Source of the DNA: a virus
UHGV virus genome: UHGV-0117634
DNA: 64,000 nucleotides
Direction: 5' to 3' (one strand)
Part shown: positions 27,213 through 41,190 of the stretch, piece by piece
Numbering within the stretch: position 1 is the stretch's first letter
Layout of the letters: each line of letters starts with the position of its first letter
Notes under the pieces: generated by a model
What the model saw: only the letters and a program-made list of their open reading frames with translations
Told to the model about the DNA's origin: nothing
Databases searched by the model: none
Translations under genes and position numbers: made by a program

Positions 27213-29175
27213 TATCCTCGTTAATCACAGGTGGAATGGTGGAACTTTCACGTTGTTCTTGTGTGTAAATCTCTCCAGATTCACGGTCAAAATCAACATC
27301 TTCATAGTGTGGCATAGAGTCATCGTAATGGTCTTCAGCCTCACCAATACCAAACTGCTGACGAATATTCTCTGCTGCACCATCAATATCAACACCACAT
27401 CCAGCAGCCTTTACAAGACGACCTGTATCTGGATTATACCAAGTGTGACCAGCAATACCAGTTGACTTACCATGACGGCGACATTTTGTTAGCTTGATTT
27501 TTGTCAAGTTCTTTTTAACAGGGTCTGGGTCAACCTTGTTACGCATAAGCAAAATGTTGTTCATGGAAATCTGGAAGTATGCACCAGAACCCTTGATATC
27601 TTCTTCAGAAATATCACCACCTTCAGAGTTGGCCTTTTGACCACCTGCACTCTTACGAACGTGACATACGTTTACCTGAGCATACTGATAACGCTTACAG
27701 CGACGAAGTAACTCAGACAGAACTTCTTCTTCATCTGTATCAGAGCGTGACAGTGCCAATGTAATAGGGTCAAGGATGATAATCTTACAATCGAGACTGT
27801 TAACAAGATAGTCAACAAACTCCAGCAGGTTATCTTGGTCAATTGCCCCTTGGTGGTCTACGATGTGAATACGACGACCTTTTGATAACTCAGCATGTGC
27901 AACCTTAATCTCATCCCAATTACGCTCATCGTAAGGAATCTCTGAAATCTGCTTACTAAGATGGATTGCACAGAGCATTTCCATAAGTTCTTCGTAAGTA
28001 TCCTCTACAGGAATCACACCGATGTTGTACTCAGTATCTTTCCATGCTTTGTAAATCATCTCACGAGTATATGCAGATTTACCTACAGATGAAGGTGCAG
28101 CAAGGGTTGTAATCTCGCCTAAACCATACCCGCCATAAGTCAGCTTATTCAAATCCCCGAAAGAATCTGGGAAAGGAATTAAAGGAATCTGACCACGATT
28201 CTTCATAGCATCGAAACCGTCTGCAAAGTTCTTGATACCAGCAGGACAGTAACGAGGTGCATTGTAGATTCGTTGTTTAAATCCTTCTAAGACTGTATCT
28301 TTGTCTTTGAAGAACTTAGTCCACCACTCACTAAGGTCTTTAATACCTTCAGGATACTGGAACAGTCTTACTTTCTCAATAGGTAAGATACCAGCAGCTT
28401 CCTTAGTTGCTTTAGCCCCTGCTTCATCATTATCAAAGCACAGGTAGATTTCATCAAAGGAAGTAATATACTGATAGTTCTCTTTGATAGACTTAACATT
28501 AGCACCAGATGGTACAGAAACGTGGCAGTAATTCTTACGTCTAGACTTATCTTTAATTGCTAAAGAAGTCATGTAGATTGCTGTAGCACATTCCATCTCA
28601 CCTTCCCAGATGAAAAGACGGTTACCACCTTCTGGAGCAATCCATGAACCGAACATAGCCAGTTCACCTTTAATATCTCCGACACCACCAGAAAAGTCTT
28701 TCAACTTCCCACGTAAGTGCTCTTTGTGATAGTCATCTGGATATTTGTGACGAACACGATAACCTACATGTTGCAACTTACCATCTTCATCTTTTTTGTA
28801 TGTTGGATAGAAATGTGCATCAATGTCGCCATTATCGTCAATATCAACTTTAATACCAAGACGCTCAAGGACTTTTGCAGGAATCTTCCTGTCTTTTAAA
28901 TCCATTGCTTCTAGGTTTTCTTTCACATCATCCAAATCCATACCACGAAATGTACGGTTTTTATTCTCTGAACCTGAAGTATGAGTACTCACAATCTGCC
29001 CTTTATCAAAATCCCACTCTGGAAAACCTTTTCCACAACTGAAACATGTCATTGAATATGAACCGTCATCATGACGATATATAGAACCTGCATCTGAAGA
29101 TAAACATTGAGGGCGTGGACATGCACAGTGACCTACAAATGTTCCAGCATCTTTCAGTTTTCTCTGTTTAGCCAT
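27184..29175 (-). CDS. DNA primase-helicase (T7 gp4-like)
   Basis: N-terminal Cys4 zinc finger (CACPRPQC...CFSCGKG), primase core, DnaB-type helicase with Walker A (AAPSSVGKS). Confidence 0.85.
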   Translation of the reverse strand: MAKQRKLKDAGTFVGHCACPRPQCLSSDAGSIYRHDDGSYSMTCFSCGKGFPEWDFDKGQIVSTHTSGSENKNRTFRGMDLDDVKENLEAMDLKDRKIPAKVLERLGIKVDIDDNGDIDAHFYPTYKKDEDGKLQHVGYRVRHKYPDDYHKEHLRGKLKDFSGGVGDIKGELAMFGSWIAPEGGNRLFIWEGEMECATAIYMTSLAIKDKSRRKNYCHVSVPSGANVKSIKENYQYITSFDEIYLCFDNDEAGAKATKEAAGILPIEKVRLFQYPEGIKDLSEWWTKFFKDKDTVLEGFKQRIYNAPRYCPAGIKNFADGFDAMKNRGQIPLIPFPDSFGDLNKLTYGGYGLGEITTLAAPSSVGKSAYTREMIYKAWKDTEYNIGVIPVEDTYEELMEMLCAIHLSKQISEIPYDERNWDEIKVAHAELSKGRRIHIVDHQGAIDQDNLLEFVDYLVNSLDCKIIILDPITLALSRSDTDEEEVLSELLRRCKRYQYAQVNVCHVRKSAGGQKANSEGGDISEEDIKGSGAYFQISMNNILLMRNKVDPDPVKKNLTKIKLTKCRRHGKSTGIAGHTWYNPDTGRLVKAAGCGVDIDGAAENIRQQFGIGEAEDHYDDSMPHYEDVDFDRESGEIYTQEQRESSTIPPVINEDNDDCPFETD

Positions 29176-31648: not shown

Positions 31649-34348
31649 ATGGACAATGTAGATTTCGAAAAATTACATTTGGTTGGTGATACAGAAACTG
31701 ATGGGTTGCTCCTTGAGTTTACAAAAGCACACGTAATGGCTTTCGCAGACTATAAAGATGACAGTGATGAACCTGCTGTGTGGGTTTTCACTGATGAGCC
31801 TATTCTTGGTCACAAGTATACAAAATACATCAAAGGTGGTCTGCGTGAAGGTGTTGAGTTTGCACTGAAAGCTAAACGTCTTTGTATCCACAATGGTCTT
31901 GGTTATGACTGGTGGGTGTTTAATCACATTGCACCTGACCTGTGGAACTTTGAGAATCCTAAGTGTAAGCCTTGGAGTGACTTCTTTCAGGATTCACTTA
32001 TCCAATCTCGCGTACAGTGGATGGATAGAACTACACCAAAAGGTTACAAAGGTGCTCATGGTTTGGCTGCATGGGGTGCTCGTGTTGGTGTTCGTAAACC
32101 AGAGATTGAAGAGTGGGGTGTCTGGAATGCAGAGATTCTTACTCGTGTTGTAGAAGATATTAAGATTAACGCCAAAACTAAACGTGCTCTTGACAATGAG
32201 TATCTCAAGCTTAAGAAGTGTGGCGTGGATACTTATGAAACCTACATGCGAGCTAAAGAAACATCTTTCTGGATGAGTCAGCAAGCTATCAACGGTTGGA
32301 AAGCTGATGTAGAGCTTATGCAGTTCCACGTTAAAGAGCTTGACAAGTTAACTAATGAGTTGGCTGCTGAGGTTGAACCACACCTTCCACCAACTATTAA
32401 GACAAAAGGTAAAGTCACAGGTGAAGAATTTGCCAAGTCTTGGAACGAGTATGTAGATACATTTGGTCACGTTGACGGCTTAAAAAGGATTACCAAGTAC
32501 CCTAAGACAAAGTATCGTGAACAGATGCGTGAAGGTGAGTTGAAGCAGTACCCTATTAAGCCATATGGTAAGCCAACTACAAAGATTTTTAATGTTGAGA
32601 AACGCAACTGCTACACTCCAACTAACACGGTCACAAAAGAAGAGTACCCTGAAGGTTTTGTAGCAATGAAAGATGCTCGTGCAGTTTGTAATGAACTGAA
32701 TGAGAAGATTGGCAAGAAGTGTAAAGATTGGAAGCCAGTTAAGACTGTGAAAACTGTGAAGTACTACAATGTTCACGTTGTTAATCACTTTGAGTTAGAG
32801 TCTAGTCGCTACACTGGTTTGATTGATGCACCATTTACACCAATTGAGTTTGAAGTTTCACGAATGACTCAGGTAGCTGTGGTGAAGGATTACTTAAAAT
32901 CTGTTGGTTGGATTCCTGATGATTGGAACTATAAAAAAGATTCTGATGGTCGTCCTATCAAGGTTTGCAGATTCAAAGACAACAAAAAGATGATTCGCAA
33001 ACATCCTAAGTGGGATGAGATGGTTGAGCGTTGTGGGTTGAACTATATTGAGCATGAAGGTGTCTATTACATCGAGCATAACTGGTCTGTTAAGAAGTAC
33101 ACAGATGTGCTTGAACCTTGCTTGATTAGGACTTCACCAAAGCTTACAGAGTCTTCTTATGATACAATCGAAGGTGAGCTTGGACAGAAGATTGCGAAGT
33201 ACTATACTTTGATGCACCGACGCAGGACTATTGAGAACTCAAAGGATGATGAGAAAGGTTGGCTGAACCAGATTCGTCCAGATGGTCGTTTGAGTGCAGG
33301 TGCAATGGTGTTTGGTACTTCTACTGGACGTATGACTCAGTATGGTATTGTAAACGTACCTTCTGGTGCTGCTGTTTACGGTGAGCCAATGAGGGCAGTG
33401 TGGATTTGTGAAGAGGGAACCAACGTAGTATCTGTTGATATGAACTCTGCACAGCTTGTACTACTCTGTAACTTCATGGGTGATAAAGACTTCACCAAAG
33501 CGGTAACAGAGGGTAAAGAAGAGATTGAGTTTGTTCGTCAAGAGGATGGAAGATACTACTGCAAACACTTTGACCAGTATCTGAATCCAGAGATTGACAA
33601 GTATCTGCGTTATGACTCTGAAAACGATTTGTACGTAGTTTACTCAGGGACTGATGCTCACACTCTGAACAGTATCTACTTCAGCCTTAATGATGAGCAA
33701 GATATCTTGACTTGTCGTGCTACTCAGGATGAGAATCTTCTTCATGAGATTAGCAAGGGACGTAAGAAAGCTAAGAATGGTATCTATGCCCTGTTGTTCG
33801 GTGCAGGTGATGAGAAGTTTGCTAAAACAATTAAAGCAGCAACTACTCAGGAAGGTGCATTGACTAAGCAGACTTACTTTGTGCGTTTACCGAAGATTAA
33901 GAAACTGTTAGACAACTTGGAAGCTGATTTCAAAGCAACTAAGAAAGCACTTGAAGAGGTGTTTGGTAAGACTGCTGCAATCTCTAAAGGTGGTTTTGTG
34001 AAGGTTGCTGGGGCTTGGCTGTGGTGTAAGTCTCCACACAAACTCTTGAACTATTTGTTAATGGGTTCAGAAGCACAAGTTCAGAATGAAGCAATCAACC
34101 TTGCATGTCGTCGTATGATTGATGAGGGTTTGATGAAGTTGAATGGTCGTAAACCAGCTATTGGTGCTCGCTTACTCTGTGCTTACCACGATGAAACAAG
34201 CTGGGAATGTCCAGAGAGCATGACAGCAGATGTGAAAGCAGTAACTGACTGGTATTATGGTCAAGCATCTAAGAACCTTGGACTAAGAAAAGAGACACTA
34301 GTCACAGGTGCAGGGAAAGTTGGTAAATCGTGGCTTGAAGTCCACTAA
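31649..34348 (+). CDS. DNA polymerase, family A, with 3'-5' exonuclease domain
   Basis: Exo I motif DTETDGLL; Pol A motif B RKKAKNGIYALLFG and motif C YHDE; 899 aa. Confidence 0.9.
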   Translation: MDNVDFEKLHLVGDTETDGLLLEFTKAHVMAFADYKDDSDEPAVWVFTDEPILGHKYTKYIKGGLREGVEFALKAKRLCIHNGLGYDWWVFNHIAPDLWNFENPKCKPWSDFFQDSLIQSRVQWMDRTTPKGYKGAHGLAAWGARVGVRKPEIEEWGVWNAEILTRVVEDIKINAKTKRALDNEYLKLKKCGVDTYETYMRAKETSFWMSQQAINGWKADVELMQFHVKELDKLTNELAAEVEPHLPPTIKTKGKVTGEEFAKSWNEYVDTFGHVDGLKRITKYPKTKYREQMREGELKQYPIKPYGKPTTKIFNVEKRNCYTPTNTVTKEEYPEGFVAMKDARAVCNELNEKIGKKCKDWKPVKTVKTVKYYNVHVVNHFELESSRYTGLIDAPFTPIEFEVSRMTQVAVVKDYLKSVGWIPDDWNYKKDSDGRPIKVCRFKDNKKMIRKHPKWDEMVERCGLNYIEHEGVYYIEHNWSVKKYTDVLEPCLIRTSPKLTESSYDTIEGELGQKIAKYYTLMHRRRTIENSKDDEKGWLNQIRPDGRLSAGAMVFGTSTGRMTQYGIVNVPSGAAVYGEPMRAVWICEEGTNVVSVDMNSAQLVLLCNFMGDKDFTKAVTEGKEEIEFVRQEDGRYYCKHFDQYLNPEIDKYLRYDSENDLYVVYSGTDAHTLNSIYFSLNDEQDILTCRATQDENLLHEISKGRKKAKNGIYALLFGAGDEKFAKTIKAATTQEGALTKQTYFVRLPKIKKLLDNLEADFKATKKALEEVFGKTAAISKGGFVKVAGAWLWCKSPHKLLNYLLMGSEAQVQNEAINLACRRMIDEGLMKLNGRKPAIGARLLCAYHDETSWECPESMTADVKAVTDWYYGQASKNLGLRKETLVTGAGKVGKSWLEVH

Positions 34349-34409
34349 TAGTGTTGACAAGGTGCTCATGGAAGAGTACCTTATACTATATATTATATAG
34401 GAGACTTGT

Positions 34410-34610
34410 ATGACTATTTCAGAAATTGAAGTTCAACTGCAATGTGCTGGATATTCTCAAAGTGAGATTGAGGCTATGTGCATCATCATTTGCAGTAGCC
34501 ATAAGCACCTCAAGCTTTCTAATGAAAATCTTCGCAAGGTTGATATTTTTATTGCTGGAGGTAAGATTATCAAGGATAAGACAGGATACCTTAAAGGTGA
34601 ACGTCTATGA
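34410..34610 (+). CDS. hypothetical protein (66 aa)
   Basis: ORF-track ORF with RBS. Confidence 0.4.
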   Translation: MTISEIEVQLQCAGYSQSEIEAMCIIICSSHKHLKLSNENLRKVDIFIAGGKIIKDKTGYLKGERL

Positions 34611-34816
34611 GCCATCGTGGAAGAACTCATCTCGCTATGATGCAAGGTGCTTCAAAAGAGACTATCAAGAATCGGAAGAAAACTCTTTTTGACAGAATGA
34701 ATAGACTCATTGATAATGCGAGCCTACCTAACTCTGAAAAGGTTTTCTTGAAAGGAAATCTGAAGAGTATTGCACAGGAACTTATTGACATTGAATTTTG
34801 GAGACACCAAAAATGA
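34607..34816 (+). CDS. hypothetical protein (69 aa)
   Basis: ATGA overlap with upstream gene. Confidence 0.4.
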   Translation: MSHRGRTHLAMMQGASKETIKNRKKTLFDRMNRLIDNASLPNSEKVFLKGNLKSIAQELIDIEFWRHQK

Positions 34817-35070
34817 GCAGCAAAGAAGAAGAAGGTTTAGCAATAATCCGTCACAAAAACCCTCAGATATCATTCGTTTCTGAAGCATGGTGTCGTGGTT
34901 TAGACTATCAATGGTACTTAGATTTGTGTAAAATGAAATCTGTAGAGCCAGTAAAAGAAGGGACTTTCAAGGAACTTTACAAGACCGTCCAAGAAGGTTA
35001 CGAAGAAAACTGTGAAAAAGGAAATCAACTATGTGGAAAACAATCATTGCACTTGGAGTGCTTTTTCTAA
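34813..35070 (+). CDS. hypothetical protein (~85 aa)
   Basis: Start moved to second Met (GGAGA RBS, ATGA overlap with the upstream stop). Confidence 0.4.
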   Translation: MSSKEEEGLAIIRHKNPQISFVSEAWCRGLDYQWYLDLCKMKSVEPVKEGTFKELYKTVQEGYEENCEKGNQLCGKQSLHLECFF

Positions 35071-35276
35071 CTGGCTGTAACCCAAGCTACGATAACAAAG
35101 AAGGGAGCTACACACTACCTCCAGAGATGAGAGATTGCTCAATCTATCGGCTGAATGGTTCCATGATTAATAGGGACTTGGTAGTTGTTCGTTGTCCAAA
35201 TTCACAGACTACAACTACCTCTAAAGTTGGTAGAAGTAGTACCCAAAGTGTAACAGTTATCAACGAAGGATATTAA
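35031..35276 (+). CDS. small lipoprotein (candidate superinfection-exclusion protein)
   Basis: Signal peptide plus lipobox (VLFLTG-C), ~60-aa mature part with two further Cys. Confidence 0.45.
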   Translation: MWKTIIALGVLFLTGCNPSYDNKEGSYTLPPEMRDCSIYRLNGSMINRDLVVVRCPNSQTTTTSKVGRSSTQSVTVINEGY

Positions 35277-35277
35277 G

Positions 35278-35484
35278 ATGCAAGTACTGGTAAACTTTAT
35301 TCACCTATATGACGTTATACACTCAACTACTACAGTTGCCCAACGTAACCCTATCGTACCACGAGAAGGTGAGTGGGTAAGGATTGATGGTTGGACTTAC
35401 ACTGTAGAAAATGTCATTCACAAGTTTGATGTTTGTGGAGACACTCAAGTTATCGACGTAGAAATTGGTGGTAAGAGAAAATGA
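35278..35484 (+). CDS. hypothetical protein (68 aa)
   Basis: ORF-track ORF; overlaps ligase start. Confidence 0.4.
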   Translation: MQVLVNFIHLYDVIHSTTTVAQRNPIVPREGEWVRIDGWTYTVENVIHKFDVCGDTQVIDVEIGGKRK

Positions 35485-36581
35485 CAATTCTGTACAAACA
35501 AAACAAAGATGGTTCTTTCAACGTTTGGTCATGTGTTGCTGTAGGTGATAAAGTTGTTACAACCTACGGTAAAGAAAATGGCAAGATGATGTTCGAAGAG
35601 TACACAGCAGAACCAAAGAACATTGGTAAGAAGAATGAGCGTAATGCTGAACAGCAAGCTCTCTTTGAAGTTGCTGCTAAGTACAAGAAGCAAGTTGACC
35701 GTAAAGGATACGCTTACACAAAATCTGAAGCAGAGAATGTTGAGAAGGTTGGTGTACAGCTTGCTCAAGATGCTTCCAAGATAAGTCATAAGAAATATTT
35801 GAAGTTCCCTGCTGACGCTCAACCAAAACTTGATGGTGTTCGTTGCAGGATTTCAAGGAATACTGATACTGTAAGCTTCACAGCTTATTCTCGTGAGAAT
35901 ACGGTATATAGCATACCTGAAGAGTTAATTCCTGATGTTCTTCTCATGTTGAAGCTTCACAAAGATGTTAAAGACTTCGATGGTGAGATTTATGCTCATG
36001 GTTGGGACTTAGAAGATATTGTTTCGATGATTAAGAATGCTGACAATCCAGACCGTCACCTTCTTAAATTCTACTGGTATGATATCTGTGACAAGACCAA
36101 ATCTTGGCCTGAGCGTCGTGAAGTTATTGACAATTCGCCAATCGTTGAACTCGGTGATGCTTGCAGGGTTGTACCTGTTCAGACAATACGTGTCAACTCT
36201 TGGGAAGAGTTTGATACTGCTCATGACAATTGGGTTAAGCTTAAGTTTGAAGGGGCAATGTATCGCTCAATCTCACCAGATTCGTTCTATGAGTGTAGTC
36301 ACCGTTCATACTTCCTGATTAAGCATAAGAAGATGCACACACAGGAATTTAAAGTAACTGGTGTAAAGACTGATAAGCGTGGTCATGGCAAGTTCGTTGT
36401 AGAAACACTTCCTAATGTCTTTGTAGATGTTTCATGGAAGACTACACACGAGAAGAAACAGTATCTTGCTGAACATCCTGAAGAGTTTATCGGGAAACCT
36501 TTGACTGTTCAGTTCCAGAAGATGACTCGTAAGGGTTCTTTACAGTTCCCTGTTGGGCTAGTAATTCGAGACTATGAATAG
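35481..36581 (+). CDS. ATP-dependent DNA ligase (T7-like)
   Basis: Adenylation motif I KLDGVR; size 366 aa. Confidence 0.85.
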   Translation: MTILYKQNKDGSFNVWSCVAVGDKVVTTYGKENGKMMFEEYTAEPKNIGKKNERNAEQQALFEVAAKYKKQVDRKGYAYTKSEAENVEKVGVQLAQDASKISHKKYLKFPADAQPKLDGVRCRISRNTDTVSFTAYSRENTVYSIPEELIPDVLLMLKLHKDVKDFDGEIYAHGWDLEDIVSMIKNADNPDRHLLKFYWYDICDKTKSWPERREVIDNSPIVELGDACRVVPVQTIRVNSWEEFDTAHDNWVKLKFEGAMYRSISPDSFYECSHRSYFLIKHKKMHTQEFKVTGVKTDKRGHGKFVVETLPNVFVDVSWKTTHEKKQYLAEHPEEFIGKPLTVQFQKMTRKGSLQFPVGLVIRDYE

Positions 36582-36589
36582 AGGCCAGT

Positions 36590-36739
36590 ATGTTTAGTGC
36601 AATTGTTCTGTTTATATTTGTTGTTTTATCATTGGCTTACTTCACAAGTAAACTCTTAAGTATAACATACAAAGCAGCCTTAGCCTTTACTCTGTTGTCA
36701 TTTGTAGTAAATGCAGTAGTCAGAGAATTTTTAGTATAA
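36590..36739 (+). CDS. small hydrophobic protein (~49 aa, not in ORF track)
   Basis: MFSAIVLFIFVVLSLAYFTSKLLSITYKAALAFTLLSFVVNAVVREFLV; GAGG RBS. Confidence 0.35.
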   Translation: MFSAIVLFIFVVLSLAYFTSKLLSITYKAALAFTLLSFVVNAVVREFLV

Positions 36740-36744
36740 AGTTG

Positions 36745-36772
36745 TTGACATGAAGAATCTGACGGGTATACT
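36745..36772 (+). promoter_or_regulatory. sigma70-like promoter (TTGACA-N16-TATACT)
   Basis: Near-consensus hexamers ~50 nt upstream of 36823 ORF; inverted repeat TCTGACGGG...CCCGTCAGA brackets the -10 and leader. Confidence 0.55.
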
Positions 36773-36822
36773 GCCTATATAGAAAATTATATATTAACCC
36801 GTCAGAAATCTCGGAGGTAGTT

Positions 36823-37203
36823 ATGAAAAAGTTACTTGTTGGTGTCATTGCTCTTGGTATGAGTTTTAGTGCAGTGGCTATGAAGATGCCTGAAGCAAAC
36901 TTTAATGGTGTTGCTTTAGAGTCTTGTAAGATTGTACAGAAAATTGCATCAAATGCTGGAGAGTTAACTAAACCGTTATCTGCTCCAACTGTTCAAGAAA
37001 TGACTGATAAGATGGTTGACTACAATTACCATTTTATGGGTGATTACTATGACAGATTAGCAGATGAGATGGTCACCCAGAATGTCGATGTTCTTGACAG
37101 CAAAGGTATCGAAACTGTAGAAGATGTGAAAGATAATTTTATGCGTGAGTCTTTCAAAGGTGTCCAATATTTTATTGAAAATCGTAACTGCATAGGTTTA
37201 TAA
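36823..37203 (+). CDS. secreted/periplasmic protein (signal peptide), function unknown
   Basis: MKKLLVGVIALGMSFSAVA signal peptide; GGAGG RBS. Confidence 0.5.
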   Translation: MKKLLVGVIALGMSFSAVAMKMPEANFNGVALESCKIVQKIASNAGELTKPLSAPTVQEMTDKMVDYNYHFMGDYYDRLADEMVTQNVDVLDSKGIETVEDVKDNFMRESFKGVQYFIENRNCIGL

Positions 37204-37205
37204 TC

Positions 37206-37409
37206 ATGAAGAAGAACATCTGTAGAACAGACTATGGTGAAGTGGTCGATGATGACGGAGTAGTTATTTACAGAGTTTGGGCTAATGATTTTTCAACCCT
37301 TGTAGAGTCTTTAGATAACTACATCAACGGGACTCGTGAAAACGTCAGAGCAACTAATCTTGATTCGTTAATAGACACTTCTCGAAAGCGGAGAAAGAAA
37401 GATGAATGA
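37206..37409 (+). CDS. hypothetical protein (67 aa)
   Basis: ORF-track ORF. Confidence 0.4.
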   Translation: MKKNICRTDYGEVVDDDGVVIYRVWANDFSTLVESLDNYINGTRENVRATNLDSLIDTSRKRRKKDE

Positions 37410-37701
37410 AGTCTTCGACCCTTATGCACCTCAAGATTCTTGGGAGGCTGATAGAGAGGCTGAAATGGAGAGTTATGTCTGTCCAATGGATATAGAAGAG
37501 ATGAAAGACTTTGTATCTTTCAGATTCTCTAAAGAGATTGAGAAGCTAAAACTTTCTCAGGCTCAAGTAGCAACTGTTTGTGAAATCTCACAGAGTCGTG
37601 TATCAAATATCATTAACGACCCTCAAAAGATTTCTTTAGAGTACATGCTTAATGCTTGTACAAAACTTGGTGTAAATTTTAACTTAAGGCTGGCAGATTA
37701 A
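37402..37701 (+). CDS. helix-turn-helix (XRE/Cro-like) DNA-binding protein with acidic N-terminus
   Basis: LSQAQVATVCEISQSRVSNI resembles XRE-family HTH. Confidence 0.45.
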   Translation: MNEVFDPYAPQDSWEADREAEMESYVCPMDIEEMKDFVSFRFSKEIEKLKLSQAQVATVCEISQSRVSNIINDPQKISLEYMLNACTKLGVNFNLRLAD

Positions 37702-37702
37702 T

Positions 37703-38062
37703 ATGAAACGTGAAAATGCAATCTTTAACGATAACTTTGCAATTGGCTTCTATGGTAAACCAACTCCAGCAGAGAAGCTTTATGGTAATGCAATTCTGGA
37801 GACCTTGAAAGAGGTTTACACAACTGGTGGTATGAAGCATACTGAAGCAAACCGTGTAAGAGGTTATATGGCAATTGGCTCTGCAATCTCTAACATCAAA
37901 CTTGAAACCACCAGTGCCAAAAAGGTACGAGACCACTTCATCAAAGAGTTGTCAGAGAATCTAGATGGTGTTGATGTTAAGGCTGTCTGGTTAGATGTTG
38001 ATGGTCACAACTACACAACTTTTGTGTTTAAAAATGAGGATATCAAATGTCTCTTCCCTTAA
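37703..38062 (+). CDS. hypothetical protein (119 aa)
   Basis: ORF-track ORF. Confidence 0.4.
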   Translation: MKRENAIFNDNFAIGFYGKPTPAEKLYGNAILETLKEVYTTGGMKHTEANRVRGYMAIGSAISNIKLETTSAKKVRDHFIKELSENLDGVDVKAVWLDVDGHNYTTFVFKNEDIKCLFP

Positions 38063-38550
38063 AACTCGATTTATACTTTGGGTACAGTGTATTGCAAGGC
38101 AGCATACTATCACTACCAAAGTCAGATTATCGTTGTGATTTAGGTTCTGTGAAACGTGCATCACACTTTAACAACAACATCTTAGGCTTGCAGACACTTC
38201 ACAGGTGGCTTGAGGAAGATGGACGGTTGAATGAGTATCTTCACCAACTCGAACTAGCCAAAGAAGAAGGTCATATGGGCTATGAAATGCTTCCACGTCT
38301 TTACAAACCTGTAAGCCCAAATGAGATTCGTTGGAATGAGCAAGCTGTTGAGAGCTATAATAAATTTAATATAACTATTTGCTCCAGAGCTTGGAAGGAG
38401 TATATGAAACTCCGTGAAATCATCATACAGACTATTGGAAAGCGTGTAGCAAAAGGTCTTGCTTATGATGAAAAGGTTGACTGGAATACACAAAAGTGTA
38501 TAAAATTCTTCAAGTACGATAATGACAAGGATACTTTTGTAGAGGTTTAA
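38047..38550 (+). CDS. hypothetical protein (167 aa)
   Basis: ORF-track ORF. Confidence 0.4.
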   Translation: MSLPLKLDLYFGYSVLQGSILSLPKSDYRCDLGSVKRASHFNNNILGLQTLHRWLEEDGRLNEYLHQLELAKEEGHMGYEMLPRLYKPVSPNEIRWNEQAVESYNKFNITICSRAWKEYMKLREIIIQTIGKRVAKGLAYDEKVDWNTQKCIKFFKYDNDKDTFVEV

Positions 38551-38551
38551 C

Positions 38552-39067
38552 ATGAAAATTGGAATTACCCTTTGCCAGCCTGAAGCAGAGTTCTTGAAAT
38601 CAATGTTGTCTGAGCATATGAAAGCTACAAATCATACTGAGAAGACATTCTTGATTGATACAAACTATGATGCAGGAACTATTGAGTTCATCGATGAAGA
38701 CACTGCTGACTCTCTGTGTGTTCTTCCTGCTCACTTATTTACTCCAGAGCTACGGGATAGTCGTTCTATTGAAGTTAATCTGGAGCCAAGTATTGAACTG
38801 TACTCAGATACACAGTATCCAAGAAGTTTTAAAGCATTGCTAAACATCTTCATAGCTGATATTGTAGAGATTGTTAAGCAGACTGAAGGTGGTCATGTAG
38901 TAACTGCTGAGTATGAACAAGGAACTATCAAACTGACAGGTGACTTTGGTTCTATGAGTTTCTTAGACTTTGTGCCAAAACACTTTGAAGATTTTCTGTC
39001 AAGTGAAGTTGATGACCTTGATTTCATACTAAAATTTGAACGCACTTTTAAGGTAAACAAAAAATGA
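38552..39067 (+). CDS. acidic hypothetical protein (171 aa)
   Basis: Strong Asp/Glu excess; no motif recognised. Confidence 0.4.
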   Translation: MKIGITLCQPEAEFLKSMLSEHMKATNHTEKTFLIDTNYDAGTIEFIDEDTADSLCVLPAHLFTPELRDSRSIEVNLEPSIELYSDTQYPRSFKALLNIFIADIVEIVKQTEGGHVVTAEYEQGTIKLTGDFGSMSFLDFVPKHFEDFLSSEVDDLDFILKFERTFKVNKK

Positions 39068-39336
39068 AAATCTTAAGCGGAGTATCACAGTGTTACATGA
39101 ATAATGGTGAGCCAGTTAAATGCTGCCATTGTGGAGGTGAGAACTTCCAAGGTGAAGTTTCAGAGATTGTCTCTGGCAATATCGCTGAAGAGTACACCCG
39201 TTGCTGTGGATGTGGAAAGATTTTATCTTTTTGGGCTTATGGAAGTTATGAACCACAGCCTCACCTTATTTACCATCCGAACAGGATTGTGAAGCGTGTT
39301 CTAAACTGGTTCATTATCAAAGGATTTACAAAATGA
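39064..39336 (+). CDS. small Cys-rich protein (zinc-binding?)
   Basis: CCHCGG and CCGCGK cysteine clusters. Confidence 0.4.
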   Translation: MKILSGVSQCYMNNGEPVKCCHCGGENFQGEVSEIVSGNIAEEYTRCCGCGKILSFWAYGSYEPQPHLIYHPNRIVKRVLNWFIIKGFTK

Positions 39337-39878
39337 TTAAGTTAATTTTTGCAAGTGGTATTAACGGGGAGTTTGGCACAGCTACTGGAATGCCTTGGCC
39401 TCGTAATAAACAAGATATGGCAGAGTTTAAGAAGCAGACTGTTAACCAGTTAGTCTTGATGGGTAGCGAAACTTGGAAGACTCTTGGGAGCAAACCTTTG
39501 CCAAACCGTGAGAACCTTGTCTTAACAAACTCTCTTGACTTTTATGGTCTGGACTTTAAAGATGACTCTCATTGCAAAGCAAGAGTTAAGTCTGAAGCTT
39601 TTGGGGCTTTCCTAAAGTATATTGATAGTTCTATTGAGGAAGATGTTTTAGTAATCGGTGGAGCCAATATCTTAATCTCAGCTTTGCCGTATGCTGACGT
39701 AGTTTTCCACAGTGTTATTAAGGAAGTTACTGAAGAGGCTACTGTCAAGCTACCTTATGAGGGTTTCTTCCAGTGCTTGTATGACACAGAGTTATTTGCT
39801 AAAGTACAGTCCAAACCCTCAGAAGATAAGTCTGTGGTGTTTGATACCTATGTTCCACAAGTAAGAGGACGTTTCTAA
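39333..39878 (+). CDS. folA: dihydrofolate reductase
   Basis: MIKLIFASG...TGMPWPR...LVLMG DHFR N-terminal motifs; directly upstream of thyA. Confidence 0.8.
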   Translation: MIKLIFASGINGEFGTATGMPWPRNKQDMAEFKKQTVNQLVLMGSETWKTLGSKPLPNRENLVLTNSLDFYGLDFKDDSHCKARVKSEAFGAFLKYIDSSIEEDVLVIGGANILISALPYADVVFHSVIKEVTEEATVKLPYEGFFQCLYDTELFAKVQSKPSEDKSVVFDTYVPQVRGRF

Positions 39879-39879
39879 T

Positions 39880-40779
39880 ATGTCACAAGCAGATGTAAGC
39901 TACAAAGCTATTTTAAACCATGTTTTATCAGTTGGTGAGTTGCGTAAAACCCGAACTGGCTCAGTGATTTCGACCTTTGCTCCACCTGAGTTCCGTTTTG
40001 ATATGCGTAGTGGATTCCCATTAATCACCTCAAAACAAACATTTATGCGTCAAGTCCTCGGTGAAGCATTATGGTTTATGAACGGTGAAAACCAACTAGG
40101 CCATTTGCGTTACAGAACTTGGGGGGAGAACGACGGAGAGCGTTGGACTATCTGGACAGATGATTTTAAACGTTGGTTGAAAACAACCTATGCTACAGAG
40201 AATGATTGGCTGGAGGACGCTGGAGGAAGAATCTATGGGGTCCAATGGAGAGCCTACGAAGGTCATGGTGGCGTTGTTGTAGACCAGTTGAGTAATCTTG
40301 TAGAGAAGATGAGAAAGTCCCCTACAGACCGTTACATGCTCGTTAACGCATGGAATGCAGCAGATATCTCAAGTAACTCTATGGCATTAGCACCTTGTCA
40401 TGTACTTTTTCAGATTTATATCTCGAATACTAATGAGGTGGATTTAAAATGGTATCAGCGTTCTTGTGATACGTTCTTAGGGTTACCGTTTAACATCGCT
40501 TCCTATGCCTTTATCTTGGAAGTGTTGTGTAAACTGACGGGATATACACCGAGATATCTGATAGGTACTTATGGTGATACTCAAATCTACCAGAACCATA
40601 TGTCGCAGGTTTTTCAACTTCTTGGTAATGAAGAGTTTCCAGCACCTAAGTTTGAAATTCATCAAGATTTGAAGTCTCTTGAAGACTTGAGACATATGAC
40701 AGCAGATGACTTTCTAGGTGGGTTGAAAGGGTATAAACATGCTGGTAAGATTGAAGCGCCTTTATCAGTAGGTAAGTAG
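39880..40779 (+). CDS. thyA: thymidylate synthase
   Basis: Catalytic-Cys context LAPCHVLFQ, 299 aa. Confidence 0.9.
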   Translation: MSQADVSYKAILNHVLSVGELRKTRTGSVISTFAPPEFRFDMRSGFPLITSKQTFMRQVLGEALWFMNGENQLGHLRYRTWGENDGERWTIWTDDFKRWLKTTYATENDWLEDAGGRIYGVQWRAYEGHGGVVVDQLSNLVEKMRKSPTDRYMLVNAWNAADISSNSMALAPCHVLFQIYISNTNEVDLKWYQRSCDTFLGLPFNIASYAFILEVLCKLTGYTPRYLIGTYGDTQIYQNHMSQVFQLLGNEEFPAPKFEIHQDLKSLEDLRHMTADDFLGGLKGYKHAGKIEAPLSVGK

Positions 40780-40785
40780 AAACAA

Positions 40786-40812
40786 AAAAGGCTCCCGTAA
40801 AAAGGAGCCTTA
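40786..40812. terminator. bidirectional rho-independent terminator between converging operons
   Basis: AAAAAAGGCTCCCGTAAAAAGGAGCCTT flanked by A-run and T-run; lies between thyA (+) and 40816..41190 (-). Confidence 0.65.
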
Positions 40813-40815
40813 TAG

Positions 40816-41190
40816 TTATTTCTTTTTAGTGCTTTGGGTATTTTGTTCTGTAATTGCCTGCAAAGCTGATACAGATTGTGCTAAGTTGTTAACACTGTCA
40901 GAGAACTTATCAAGGGTCTTAGTCAACTTAGCGTTTTCTCCCTTAACATTCTCTAGCTGAACTTTCTGGTTCTCCATCCCTAATTGTAGGAGCTTCATAT
41001 CAGATTGTAAGTCACGAATAGCTGAATAGTTACCTTTTGAGTAACCATCCAACTGCTGTAACTTATTTGTGATAGACACTTCCTGTTTACCATCAGAGAC
41101 CTGCATTGTAGTGTACATACCAATTACACTGAAAATACCTACAACGATTGCACCAATATTATTCTTAAAAGCATCTTCAAGCCACTTCAT
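40816..41190 (-). CDS. membrane-anchored coiled-coil protein (124 aa)
   Basis: N-terminal TMD (IGAIVVGIFSVIGMY) then heptad-rich region; no embedded lipoprotein ORF seen. Confidence 0.45.
   Translation of the reverse strand: MKWLEDAFKNNIGAIVVGIFSVIGMYTTMQVSDGKQEVSITNKLQQLDGYSKGNYSAIRDLQSDMKLLQLGMENQKVQLENVKGENAKLTKTLDKFSDSVNNLAQSVSALQAITEQNTQSTKKK

Follow-up and report, generated by a model that had tools for sequence, protein, structure and literature searches.

We analyzed a 64,000-nucleotide stretch of a viral genome (UHGV-0117634; hereafter, the window) and focused on seven small genes, g1 to g7, which lie on the + strand at 36823-39336 between the genes for DNA ligase and dihydrofolate reductase (DHFR). 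The block is probably the promoter-proximal part of a nine-gene Mooglevirus operon that continues into DHFR and thymidylate synthase (ThyA), in which a promoter, P1, is fused to a hairpin resembling the promoter-early stem-loop (PeSL) elements of T4-type phages and is followed by accessory small genes.

Gene block and probable transcription unit

The phage of the window was identified as a Mooglevirus (Ounavirinae, Felix-O1-like myovirus). Its bases 36500-39500 showed 97.5% identity to Shigella phage SFPB and 93-97% identity to other members of the genus, and the phage records matching these bases (n = 240) were all effectively Ounavirinae. The block belongs to a + strand replication/nucleotide-metabolism island that extends from PolA to ThyA (31649-40779) and has - strand genes on either flank. 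A first-pass annotation, made from the letters alone, had placed seven + strand open reading frames (ORFs) between ligase and DHFR, and all seven were present at exactly 36823-39336. The features of the region are as follows (aa, amino acids).

35481-36581, + strand: DNA ligase, upstream neighbour of the block
36590-36739, + strand: g0, hydrophobic membrane-type ORF of 49 aa (phrog_22006); end of the ligase unit, with its stop just 5' of P1
36745-36772, + strand: P1, sigma-70-type promoter TTGACA-N16-TATACT; predicted start near 36779-36780
36758-36806, + strand: inverted repeat with arms at 36758-36767 and 36797-36806; extends across the -10 box and start site
36813-36817, + strand: Shine-Dalgarno sequence GGAGG of g1, 5 nt 5' of the ATG, read directly
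36823-37203, + strand: g1, 126 aa, predicted exported (phrog_4332); signal peptide; acidic and fast-evolving
37206-37409, + strand: g2, 67 aa, basic C-terminal tail (phrog_4473)
37402-37701, + strand: g3, 99 aa, XRE-family helix-turn-helix (HTH) protein of HigA2-like architecture (Pfam HTH_3, 2.8e-8; HTH_37, 3.7e-7)
37703-38062, + strand: g4, 119 aa, conserved (phrog_4116)
38047-38550, + strand: g5, 167 aa, lineage-specific (phrog_9143)
38552-39067, + strand: g6, 171 aa, moderately acidic; orphan predicted fold of two alpha+beta halves
39064-39336, + strand: g7, 90 aa, C4 zinc ribbon CxxC-23-CxxC with a C-terminal extension; orthologue of Bas63 gene 32
39333-39878, + strand: DHFR; its start overlaps the g7 stop (ATGA)
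39880-40779, + strand: ThyA, last gene of the unit, intact (900 nt)
40788-40811: bidirectional hairpin terminator, the first + strand terminator-like site past P1

No + strand terminator-like site was detected between P1 and 40788. The junctions from g1 to DHFR consisted of gaps of 2 nt and 1 nt or of overlaps of 8, 16, 4, and 4 nt. Because no terminator intervenes and the junctions are tight or overlapping, the block was taken as the first seven genes of an operon, g1-g7-DHFR-ThyA, which probably ends at 40788-40811. The block had been regarded as a separate unit between ligase and DHFR; this view does not hold, since the genes run into DHFR and ThyA without a terminator and with overlapping stop and start codons. 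The stem of the hairpin at 40788-40811 was identical to the Felix O1 bidirectional terminators t79/t80 (PMC3185647).

Reverse transcription polymerase chain reaction in Felix O1 has shown that ORFs 80, 83, 84, and 87 peak at 25 min, along with the polymerase (ORF 96), and ORF 81 at 10 min (PMC3185647). When the Felix O1 ORFs are anchored on t80, ORF 80 would correspond to ThyA, ORF 81 to DHFR, ORF 83 to g6, ORF 84 to g4, and ORF 87 to g1. The orthologues mapped in this manner would be timed with the polymerase and ThyA and would not belong to the immediate-early class.

On these observations we propose that P1 is a host sigma-70 promoter, which would re-initiate transcription after the ligase unit and would drive g1-g7, DHFR, and ThyA as one message, probably translationally coupled, ending at 40788-40811. 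The seven genes would be Ounavirinae-specific accessory genes, comprising the exported g1, g2 with its basic tail, the HTH regulator g3, g4 and g5, the acidic g6, and the zinc-ribbon protein g7.

Promoter P1

A near-consensus promoter had been noted at the head of the block, and TTGACA-N16-TATACT was confirmed at 36745-36772. The sequence matched the consensus at 11 of 12 positions and was the sole TTGACA-N15-18-TATAMT in 64 kb. Such a match occurred at least once in 24 of 100 shuffles of the 64 kb, and promoter-like matches overall were without enrichment (37 observed versus 30.5 +/- 5.9 expected). P1 begins 6 nt past the g0 stop, and GGAGG and the g1 ATG lie 41-51 nt further 3'. The scan covered 32 related loci from three genera, and 31 of them had P1 (28 of 29 in one set, with none found in locus L015, and 3 of 3 in a second set). 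The conserved context in these relatives was GTTGTTGACAT...TATACT, with one common TTGACAT...TATACT copy per locus. P1 is thus credible because it stands in one of the few intergenic gaps and is conserved among nearly all of these loci, not because of its motif score.

Inverted repeat at P1

The two arms of the inverted repeat, TCTGACGGGT (36758-36767) and ACCCGTCAGA (36797-36806), were complementary at 10 of 10 positions with 29 nt between them, and neither arm had another exact copy in the window. The left arm lies inside the -35/-10 spacer, and its last T is the first T of the -10 box TATACT. The right arm lies at about +18 to +28, directly 5' of the Shine-Dalgarno sequence of g1. The repeat had been described as bracketing the promoter; the perfect 10-nt repeat does exist, but it covers the -10 box together with the start site and does not enclose the whole promoter. 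Of the promoter-like sites in the 64 kb, P1 alone had a perfect inverted repeat of 10 bp, and another had one of 8 bp.

Four versions of the arms were found at the same position in relatives, each complementary to its own partner.

Version A, CTGACGGGT/ACCCGTCAG: window, SFPB, Michonne
Version B, TGGTGAGTA/TACTCACCA: all Felixounaviruses, Moogle, Silverhawkium, SUSP2
Version C, TCCGGTAGTT/AACTACCGGA: Suspvirus EcSzw_1
Version D, TAGTGGGT/ACCCACTA: ESh21

The outermost pair varied within version A: the window had T-A and Michonne C-G, whereas the pair was mismatched (C.A) in SFPB. When versions A, C, and D were aligned, both sides had changed in 5 of the 10 pairs, and 84% of the cells were paired versus 28-60% with a slid partner; the value of 84% is an undercount, as version C stands one column out of register in this alignment. 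RNA folding of the repeat regions gave z-scores of -2.1 to -4.9. Because four unlike arm versions each stay self-complementary, these comparisons indicate that the repeat is a hairpin conserved as a structure and that base pairing is the selected feature. Searches against Rfam gave zero matches for the window and two relatives. A canonical intrinsic terminator was ruled out, the loop being long and a U-tract lacking.

RNA initiated at P1 would carry the right arm only, so the hairpin could arise only in single-stranded DNA or in a transcript that continues from the PolA-ligase unit. In such a transcript, its role would be attenuation, processing, or insulation.

VIPR locus at the P1 site in relatives

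The Viral Interference Programmable Repeat (VIPR) system, reported in 2026, has three components: Vipr, which is an ancestral RAMP protein; Vap, an accessory protein; and vrRNAs built of GGY/NN repeats (preprint PMC13142463). A non-contiguous code underlies the recognition of DNA by the vrRNAs, and the system is directed at competing mobile elements (PMC13142463).

Moogle, Silverhawkium, SUSP2, and VpaE1 had a cassette of about 1.9 kb with P1 on one side and a second promoter-like copy on the other, whereas the window, SFPB, Michonne, EcSzw_1, and ESh21 had the single P1 element and no cassette. In the cassette carriers, the downstream part of the second copy was homologous to the P1 leader of the window. 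The insert of Moogle (L001:1800-3650) and VpaE1 (L003:800-2700) contained a 195-aa gene, vipr, and a 146-aa gene, vap. The two genes were flanked by 2-5 vrRNA modules, in each of which a 5-nt-periodic (GGTNN)x8-17 tract is combined with a conserved hairpin. A profile built from 24 homologues of the 195-aa protein matched PDB 36pp, the SUSP1 Vipr protein, with an E value of 3e-47; from this match and the preprint (PMC13142463), the insert was identified as a VIPR system. A reading of the GGTNN tracts and the 195-aa protein as a new TRAP-like RNA-binding system was dropped, VIPR being already reported.

In Moogle, Silverhawkium, SUSP2, and many Felixounaviruses, the VIPR locus occupies precisely the interval from P1 to g1, and the equivalent site of the window (36773-36822) is empty. 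Its presence in the relatives accounts for the indel seen by megablast. The window gave no Vipr match by tblastn or by the profile of 24 Vipr homologues, a vap gene was likewise lacking, and GGTNN tracts were absent there. When the vrRNAs of the relatives were compared with the window under the published 1-nt-skip rule, the best matches equaled shuffled-order controls, indicating that the window is not a target. The comparison of loci shows the P1 junction to be a hot spot for conflict-related cargo, and the P1/hairpin element would be the joint at which the VIPR cassette of the relatives is gained or lost.

A scan of viral contigs for seven GGTNN units gave 120 loci. A Vipr homologue was located within a few hundred bases in 32 of them, on the same strand in 31, and about half of the 120 loci were plain pentanucleotide microsatellites. 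Vipr-adjacent arrays reached 13-15 tracts over >1 kb (L053 2217-3359; L131 3243-4318). In several Felixounaviruses (L007-L009, L012, L013, L023, L026), the gap between ligase and g1 was 0.3-0.45 kb, too short for vipr and vap. In Bas63, GGTNN tracts persist in the short non-coding stretch between ligase and the g1 homologue (L030, about 27213-27654, - strand). Bas63 alone of the short-gap phages was scanned for tracts, and the other loci were judged by gap size; such loci may be orphan vrRNA genes without Vipr, or a decayed VIPR locus.

Conservation and selection

The ratios of nonsynonymous to synonymous substitution (dN/dS) against Michonne were 0.03-0.12 for g1-g7 and 0.08-0.10 for DHFR, ThyA, and ligase. 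Since the values are like those of the neighbouring enzymes, all seven were regarded as real genes under purifying selection. Six of the seven genes stand in the same order in Mooglevirus, Suspvirus, and Felixounavirus and are restricted to these phages; the exception is g5, which the first two genera share and Felixounavirus lacks. The amino acid identities between the window and Felixounavirus were as follows.

g1: 33%
g2: 54%
g3: 72%
g4: 72%
g6: 41%
g7: 63%
DHFR: 67%
ThyA: 79%
Ligase: about 87%

These values point to a conserved subfamily-specific module in which g1 and g6 are fast-evolving and g5 is lineage-specific. Hypervariability across relatives, which had been proposed as a check, was not observed, as the gene order is kept in three genera under strong purifying selection. 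The block is thus ordinary for its phage group: it forms a conserved accessory portion, restricted to the subfamily, of the probable DHFR-ThyA operon and is not a variable island. It had also been suggested that the genes might turn out to be conserved core genes with assignable housekeeping functions; they are conserved, and no function could be assigned.

Each of the seven proteins had one PHROG match; six of these families have no assigned function, and that of g3 is described as "transcriptional regulator". Searches of Pfam, NCBIfam, and PADLOC gave nothing significant for g1-g7 except g3. No enzyme family was obtained for any of the seven from Pfam, NCBIfam, PHROGs, and PADLOC, in agreement with the earlier remark that the block lacks recognisable enzymatic motifs.

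Proteins g1 to g5

The secreted protein previously noted in the block was identified as g1, which has a Sec-type signal peptide, MKK-LLVGVIALGMSFSAVA|MK, conserved in three genera. Cleavage is predicted after AVA19, with ASA| and VNA| as the equivalents in other genera. The signal peptide was assigned by rule (basic n-region, hydrophobic core, and small residues at -3/-1) and not by a trained predictor. An L-x-x-C lipobox was absent. C35 and C123 were invariant, and both are located in the mature part; g1 is probably an exported, disulphide-bonded periplasmic protein. A role in superinfection exclusion or lysis control would be a guess.

In g2, the basic C-terminal tail SRKRRKKDE was conserved. 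The acidic HTH protein of the first-pass annotation was likewise verified as g3, which matched HTH_3 with 34.1 bits (cut-off 23) and HTH_37 with 30.3 bits (cut-off 27) and has an isoelectric point (pI) of 4.45. The N-terminal region of about 40 aa is acidic and invariant, more conserved than the HTH. The nearest solved structure was the antitoxin HigA2 (PDB 7ewc, E 8e-4), and PADLOC gave weak HTH matches only. These results suggest that g3 is an XRE/HigA2-like DNA-binding regulator.

A homologue search with g4 gave 12 proteins, all from close Ounavirinae relatives, and its AlphaFold2 model had a pLDDT of 47. Profile searches of PDB with g1, g4, and g6 gave no matches.

Protein g6

The 171-aa protein of the block had been called strongly acidic. 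It is indeed acidic, with a pI of 4.60 and a net charge of -15 (about -0.09 per residue), but the description was overstated, as g6 ranks only around the 5th-10th percentile of the long ORFs of the window. Across genera the net charge was -12 to -15 and the pI 4.5-4.6.

A homologue search with g6 gave 11 proteins, all from close Ounavirinae relatives. An exhaustive HMMER profile search of 1.84 billion proteins gave three clusters at 50% identity, plus one repetitive false match, and all 255 matching phage records had Ounavirinae-type names or hosts. The AlphaFold2 model built from the 11-sequence alignment had a pLDDT of 83.5 and a pTM of 0.71 and consisted of two alpha+beta halves with the same order of secondary structure. 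No convincing match was found when the model was compared with solved structures, DNA mimics included. We consider g6 a confidently predicted orphan fold, which would be new.

The possibility of an internal sequence duplication was rejected because BLASTP of one half against the other found nothing, though the halves of the model look similar. A relationship to sliding clamps was also discarded, the matches being at noise level. In SUSP2 (NC_028935.2; L032:4078-4595), a frameshift near the boundary of the predicted structural halves divides the g6 orthologue into ORFs of 100 aa and 68 aa; the split could be natural, mark a pseudogene, or reflect an error of sequencing.

Protein g7

The Cys-rich mini protein that had been noticed in the block corresponds to g7. 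It has 7 Cys, five of which are invariant; C20-x2-C23 and C47-x2-C50 form a C4 zinc ribbon, and C10 is also invariant. The four ribbon residues were invariant in all 10 sequences from three genera. Past the ribbon, g7 has a conserved C-terminal extension of 40 aa (FWAYGSYEP.PH.IYH...NWFI.KGF.K). A homologue search gave 7 proteins, all from close Ounavirinae relatives. The identity between g7 and bas63_0032, an 86-aa gene directly 5' of DHFR, was 63% (E 1e-41). The gene numbers of the Bas63 paper equal the GenBank locus tags (for example, gene 65 is glutaredoxin).

In a genome-wide knockout screen of Bas63, the need for gene 32 was lower in DH10B, which is restriction-deficient, than in three further hosts (PMC11482910). 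The authors called it Lar-like and suggested evasion of type IV restriction systems, which DH10B lacks (PMC11482910). In our searches, g7 of the window did not match the Lar profiles of Pfam and NCBIfam. Four orthologues matched TIGR03655 (Lar) with E values of 0.0015-0.011 and 16-19 bits versus a cut-off of 39.6, and ECs_2282_CxxC (NF047912) was matched by orthologues with E values of 2.3e-5 to 5.8e-3. Overall, g7 and its orthologues scored 16-24 bits against Lar and ECs_2282-type profiles, versus cut-offs of 37-40. PF14354 matched 4 of the 10 family members (best E 0.011), and other zinc-ribbon families scored equally. Alignment of g7 with RalR by hhalign had a probability of 19% and covered the ribbon region only. 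Taken together, these findings suggest that g7 plausibly acts like a Lar-type small zinc-ribbon anti-restriction factor, although it scores below the thresholds of that family, and that it would most likely benefit the phage in hosts whose restriction systems are intact.

Flanking genes

The g0 gene is context and stands outside the promoter-driven block. Its constraint is far weaker than that of the block genes (dN/dS 0.45 versus Michonne). Suspvirus EcSzw_1 and most of the scanned Felixounavirus loci yielded no g0; the copies found in some Felixounavirus loci were divergent, with 42-44% identity, and other copies were probably missed because of divergence.

Beyond the terminator, a convergent gene of 124 aa (40816-41190, - strand) encodes a protein with a single transmembrane segment at its N-terminus and a long tail that resembles a coiled coil. 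It is annotated as "holin" in some relatives, and its PHROG is without assigned function. Thymidylate synthase of SFPB is annotated as two coding sequences (300 nt and 444 nt; L002:4880-5778), in contrast to the single intact gene of the window; the split is probably a frameshift or an assembly error. Upstream, a 68-aa ORF at 35278-35484 overlaps the ligase start and occupies the same position as Bas63 g40, a reported trigger of hhe defence. It was rejected as an orthologue, since the two had no similarity; the small genes 5' of ligase thus differ among genera.

Discussion

Several points weigh against the interpretation of the block as the head of a DHFR-ThyA operon behind a PeSL-like promoter. 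The start site of P1, how far the operon extends, and the upstream read-through were deduced from sequence, as were the role of the hairpin and the functions of the proteins, and the mapping of the Felix O1 ORFs depends on inference from the t80 terminator. The four arm versions stand for no more than about four independent events, the loop is 24-31 nt long, and no U-tract follows the stem. T4-type phages carry numerous PeSLs, whereas one P1-type promoter/stem-loop was present in 64 kb. As for g7, the Lar assignment falls under every curated threshold with rival zinc-ribbon families equal, and the published label of Bas63 gene 32 appears to derive from a BLASTP name.

Alternatively, g2-g6 could be lineage-specific accessory subunits or regulators of the replication and deoxynucleoside triphosphate synthesis machinery. 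This would explain their being locked in one operon with DHFR and ThyA beside ligase and polymerase. It agrees with the order fixed across three genera, the junctions translationally coupled up to DHFR, the strong purifying selection, the conservation of g3 and g4 on par with DHFR and ThyA, and the Felix O1 timing, which fits the polymerase and ThyA; the g6 model also resembles clamp/processivity-factor domains, non-significantly. We regard this explanation as unlikely, because no homology of sequence or fold ties g2-g6 to replication or nucleotide-metabolism proteins, g1 is predicted to be periplasmic, and g5 is missing from a whole genus. A different function had been proposed at the outset, when the block was named the likeliest place for host-takeover or anti-restriction genes. 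Part of this proposal stands: the g7 orthologue was less needed in the restriction-deficient host of the Bas63 screen and was termed Lar-like by the authors, g1 and g6 outpace the enzymes in divergence, and a system of inter-phage warfare, VIPR, lies directly upstream in relatives. Against it, the block is conserved and co-operonic with DHFR and ThyA, and the Felix O1 orthologues, as mapped above, peak at 25 min and are not immediate-early. In a further reading, the P1 hairpin junction and the genes behind it would constitute an Ounavirinae "conflict island", the hairpin serving as the joint for swapping VIPR and g1, g6, the Lar-like g7, and the HigA2-like g3 as new counter-defence or host-takeover effectors; we think this quite unlikely. 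It is improbable that the block is a host-takeover/anti-restriction island with g6 as an Ocr/ArdA-type DNA mimic that blocks restriction or other DNA-binding defences. In its favour, g6 stays acidic between genera although its identity falls to about 41%, both g6 and g1 evolve rapidly, the g6 family was found only in Ounavirinae and has an orphan fold that points to no other function, and g7 in the same operon has a restriction-related phenotype in its Bas63 orthologue. However, the net charge per residue of g6 is well under that of classical mimics such as Ocr and ArdA, whose acidity is about twofold higher or more, its acidity is moderate within its own phage, its model matched no solved mimic or other fold convincingly, its orthologue is frameshift-split in SUSP2, and the block is conserved and grouped with DHFR and ThyA, not variable. 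The earlier label of a possible DNA mimic was hence removed as unsupported.

Two further alternatives concern g3. If the repeat were an operator, g3 would bind both arms and autoregulate P1. An XRE-type regulator is encoded within the same operon, a perfect palindrome lies across the -10 box and start site, and g3 is weakly similar to "control protein" models of restriction-modification systems. However, the arms are wholly unlike among versions A to D, yet the recognition-helix region SQSRVSNI of g3 is invariant in phages with versions A, B, and C, and g3 is 89% identical between Moogle (version B) and the window (version A). In addition, compensatory change marks base pairing and not protein recognition, and half-sites 39 bp apart from centre to centre are atypical of XRE dimers. 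An operator role was dismissed as very improbable, since the arms vary while the recognition helix stays invariant. A toxin-antitoxin function would make g2 and g3 a toxin-antitoxin-like pair, or g3 a stand-alone HigA2-like antitoxin mimic that neutralises a host toxin via its acidic N-terminus. HigA2 (7ewc) is the closest solved relative of g3 and has the same layout of N-terminal extension and HTH, HigA and HipB models of NCBIfam gave sub-threshold matches, the small g2 overlaps directly upstream as in higBA, and the N-terminal 40 aa of g3 outconserve the HTH. Nevertheless, g2 matches no toxin family in Pfam, NCBIfam, and PADLOC, every antitoxin match is below its curated cut-off (TIGR02607 HigA, 24.2 bits versus 47.7), and XRE HTH domains are ubiquitous among phage regulators; we give this function hardly any credence.

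Felix-O1-like phages are widely used in typing and biocontrol of Salmonella, E. coli, and Shigella, and the timing of their transcription is unexplained (PMC3185647). P1, read as the promoter of the nine-gene operon, and its covarying hairpin would provide a concrete handle on how the replication/nucleotide-metabolism region splits into transcription units, and the element marks an insertion/loss site of the newly described RNA-guided system VIPR. The genes g1-g7 are a compact set of conserved, family-restricted unknowns, of which g7 already has an orthologue with a host-dependent phenotype. VIPR at the position of the empty site in relatives is known biology; the novelty of the present analysis is modest and concerns the PeSL-like element and the orphan fold of g6.

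Comparison with known systems

Like HigA2 (XRE, HTH_3/HTH_37), g3 is of similar size and combines an N-terminal extension of about 40 residues with a C-terminal HTH (LSQ.QVA....ISQSRVS.I). Unlike HigA2, it has no recognisable cognate toxin, is encoded in the nucleotide-metabolism operon of a virulent phage, and has an acidic and invariant N-terminus. g6 is small, acidic, phage-encoded, and located behind a host-type promoter, as are Ocr and ArdA, but it is much less acidic, its predicted fold is two-lobed alpha+beta, and it is conserved in a core operon. In the g7 family, the CxxCG...CxxC ribbon aligns to most of the short profiles of Lar/RalR (TIGR03655, PF14354) and of the ECs_2282 type, and the Bas63 orthologue is of less importance where the host is restriction-deficient (PMC11482910). 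g7 differs from Lar/RalR in its extra conserved extension of 40 aa and in its scores below the cut-offs. Unlike the VIPR carriers, the phage of the window has an empty site at P1.

PeSLs are cassettes that combine promoter and terminator and occur in T4-type phages (Arbiol et al. 2010, PMC2839356; Comeau et al. 2014, PMC4122927). They consist of a near-consensus sigma-70 promoter with a stem-loop that is located between the two boxes or overlaps the -10 box, and are placed between an upstream stop codon and a downstream Shine-Dalgarno sequence and ATG (PMC2839356, PMC4122927). They act as promoter and attenuator, serve as joints of cassette gain and loss, and flank cassettes that differ among close relatives (PMC2839356, PMC4122927). 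Similarly, P1 is a near-consensus sigma-70 promoter with a stem-loop over its -10 box between the g0 stop and the Shine-Dalgarno sequence and ATG of g1, its stem varies in sequence across versions while pairing is retained, and a cassette lies between two promoter copies in some close relatives with a single element in others. The P1 element differs in occurring in Ounavirinae and not in T4-type phages, in its long loop, which contains the -10 box and the start site, in stems without poly-G/poly-C, and in that the cassette swapped at P1 is the VIPR system and not an ORFan. We met no earlier description of a PeSL-like promoter/hairpin with compensatory variation in Ounavirinae, though no search aimed at one was made, and we present it as new. 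By this analogy, P1 and its hairpin resemble a composite promoter/stem-loop of the PeSL kind.

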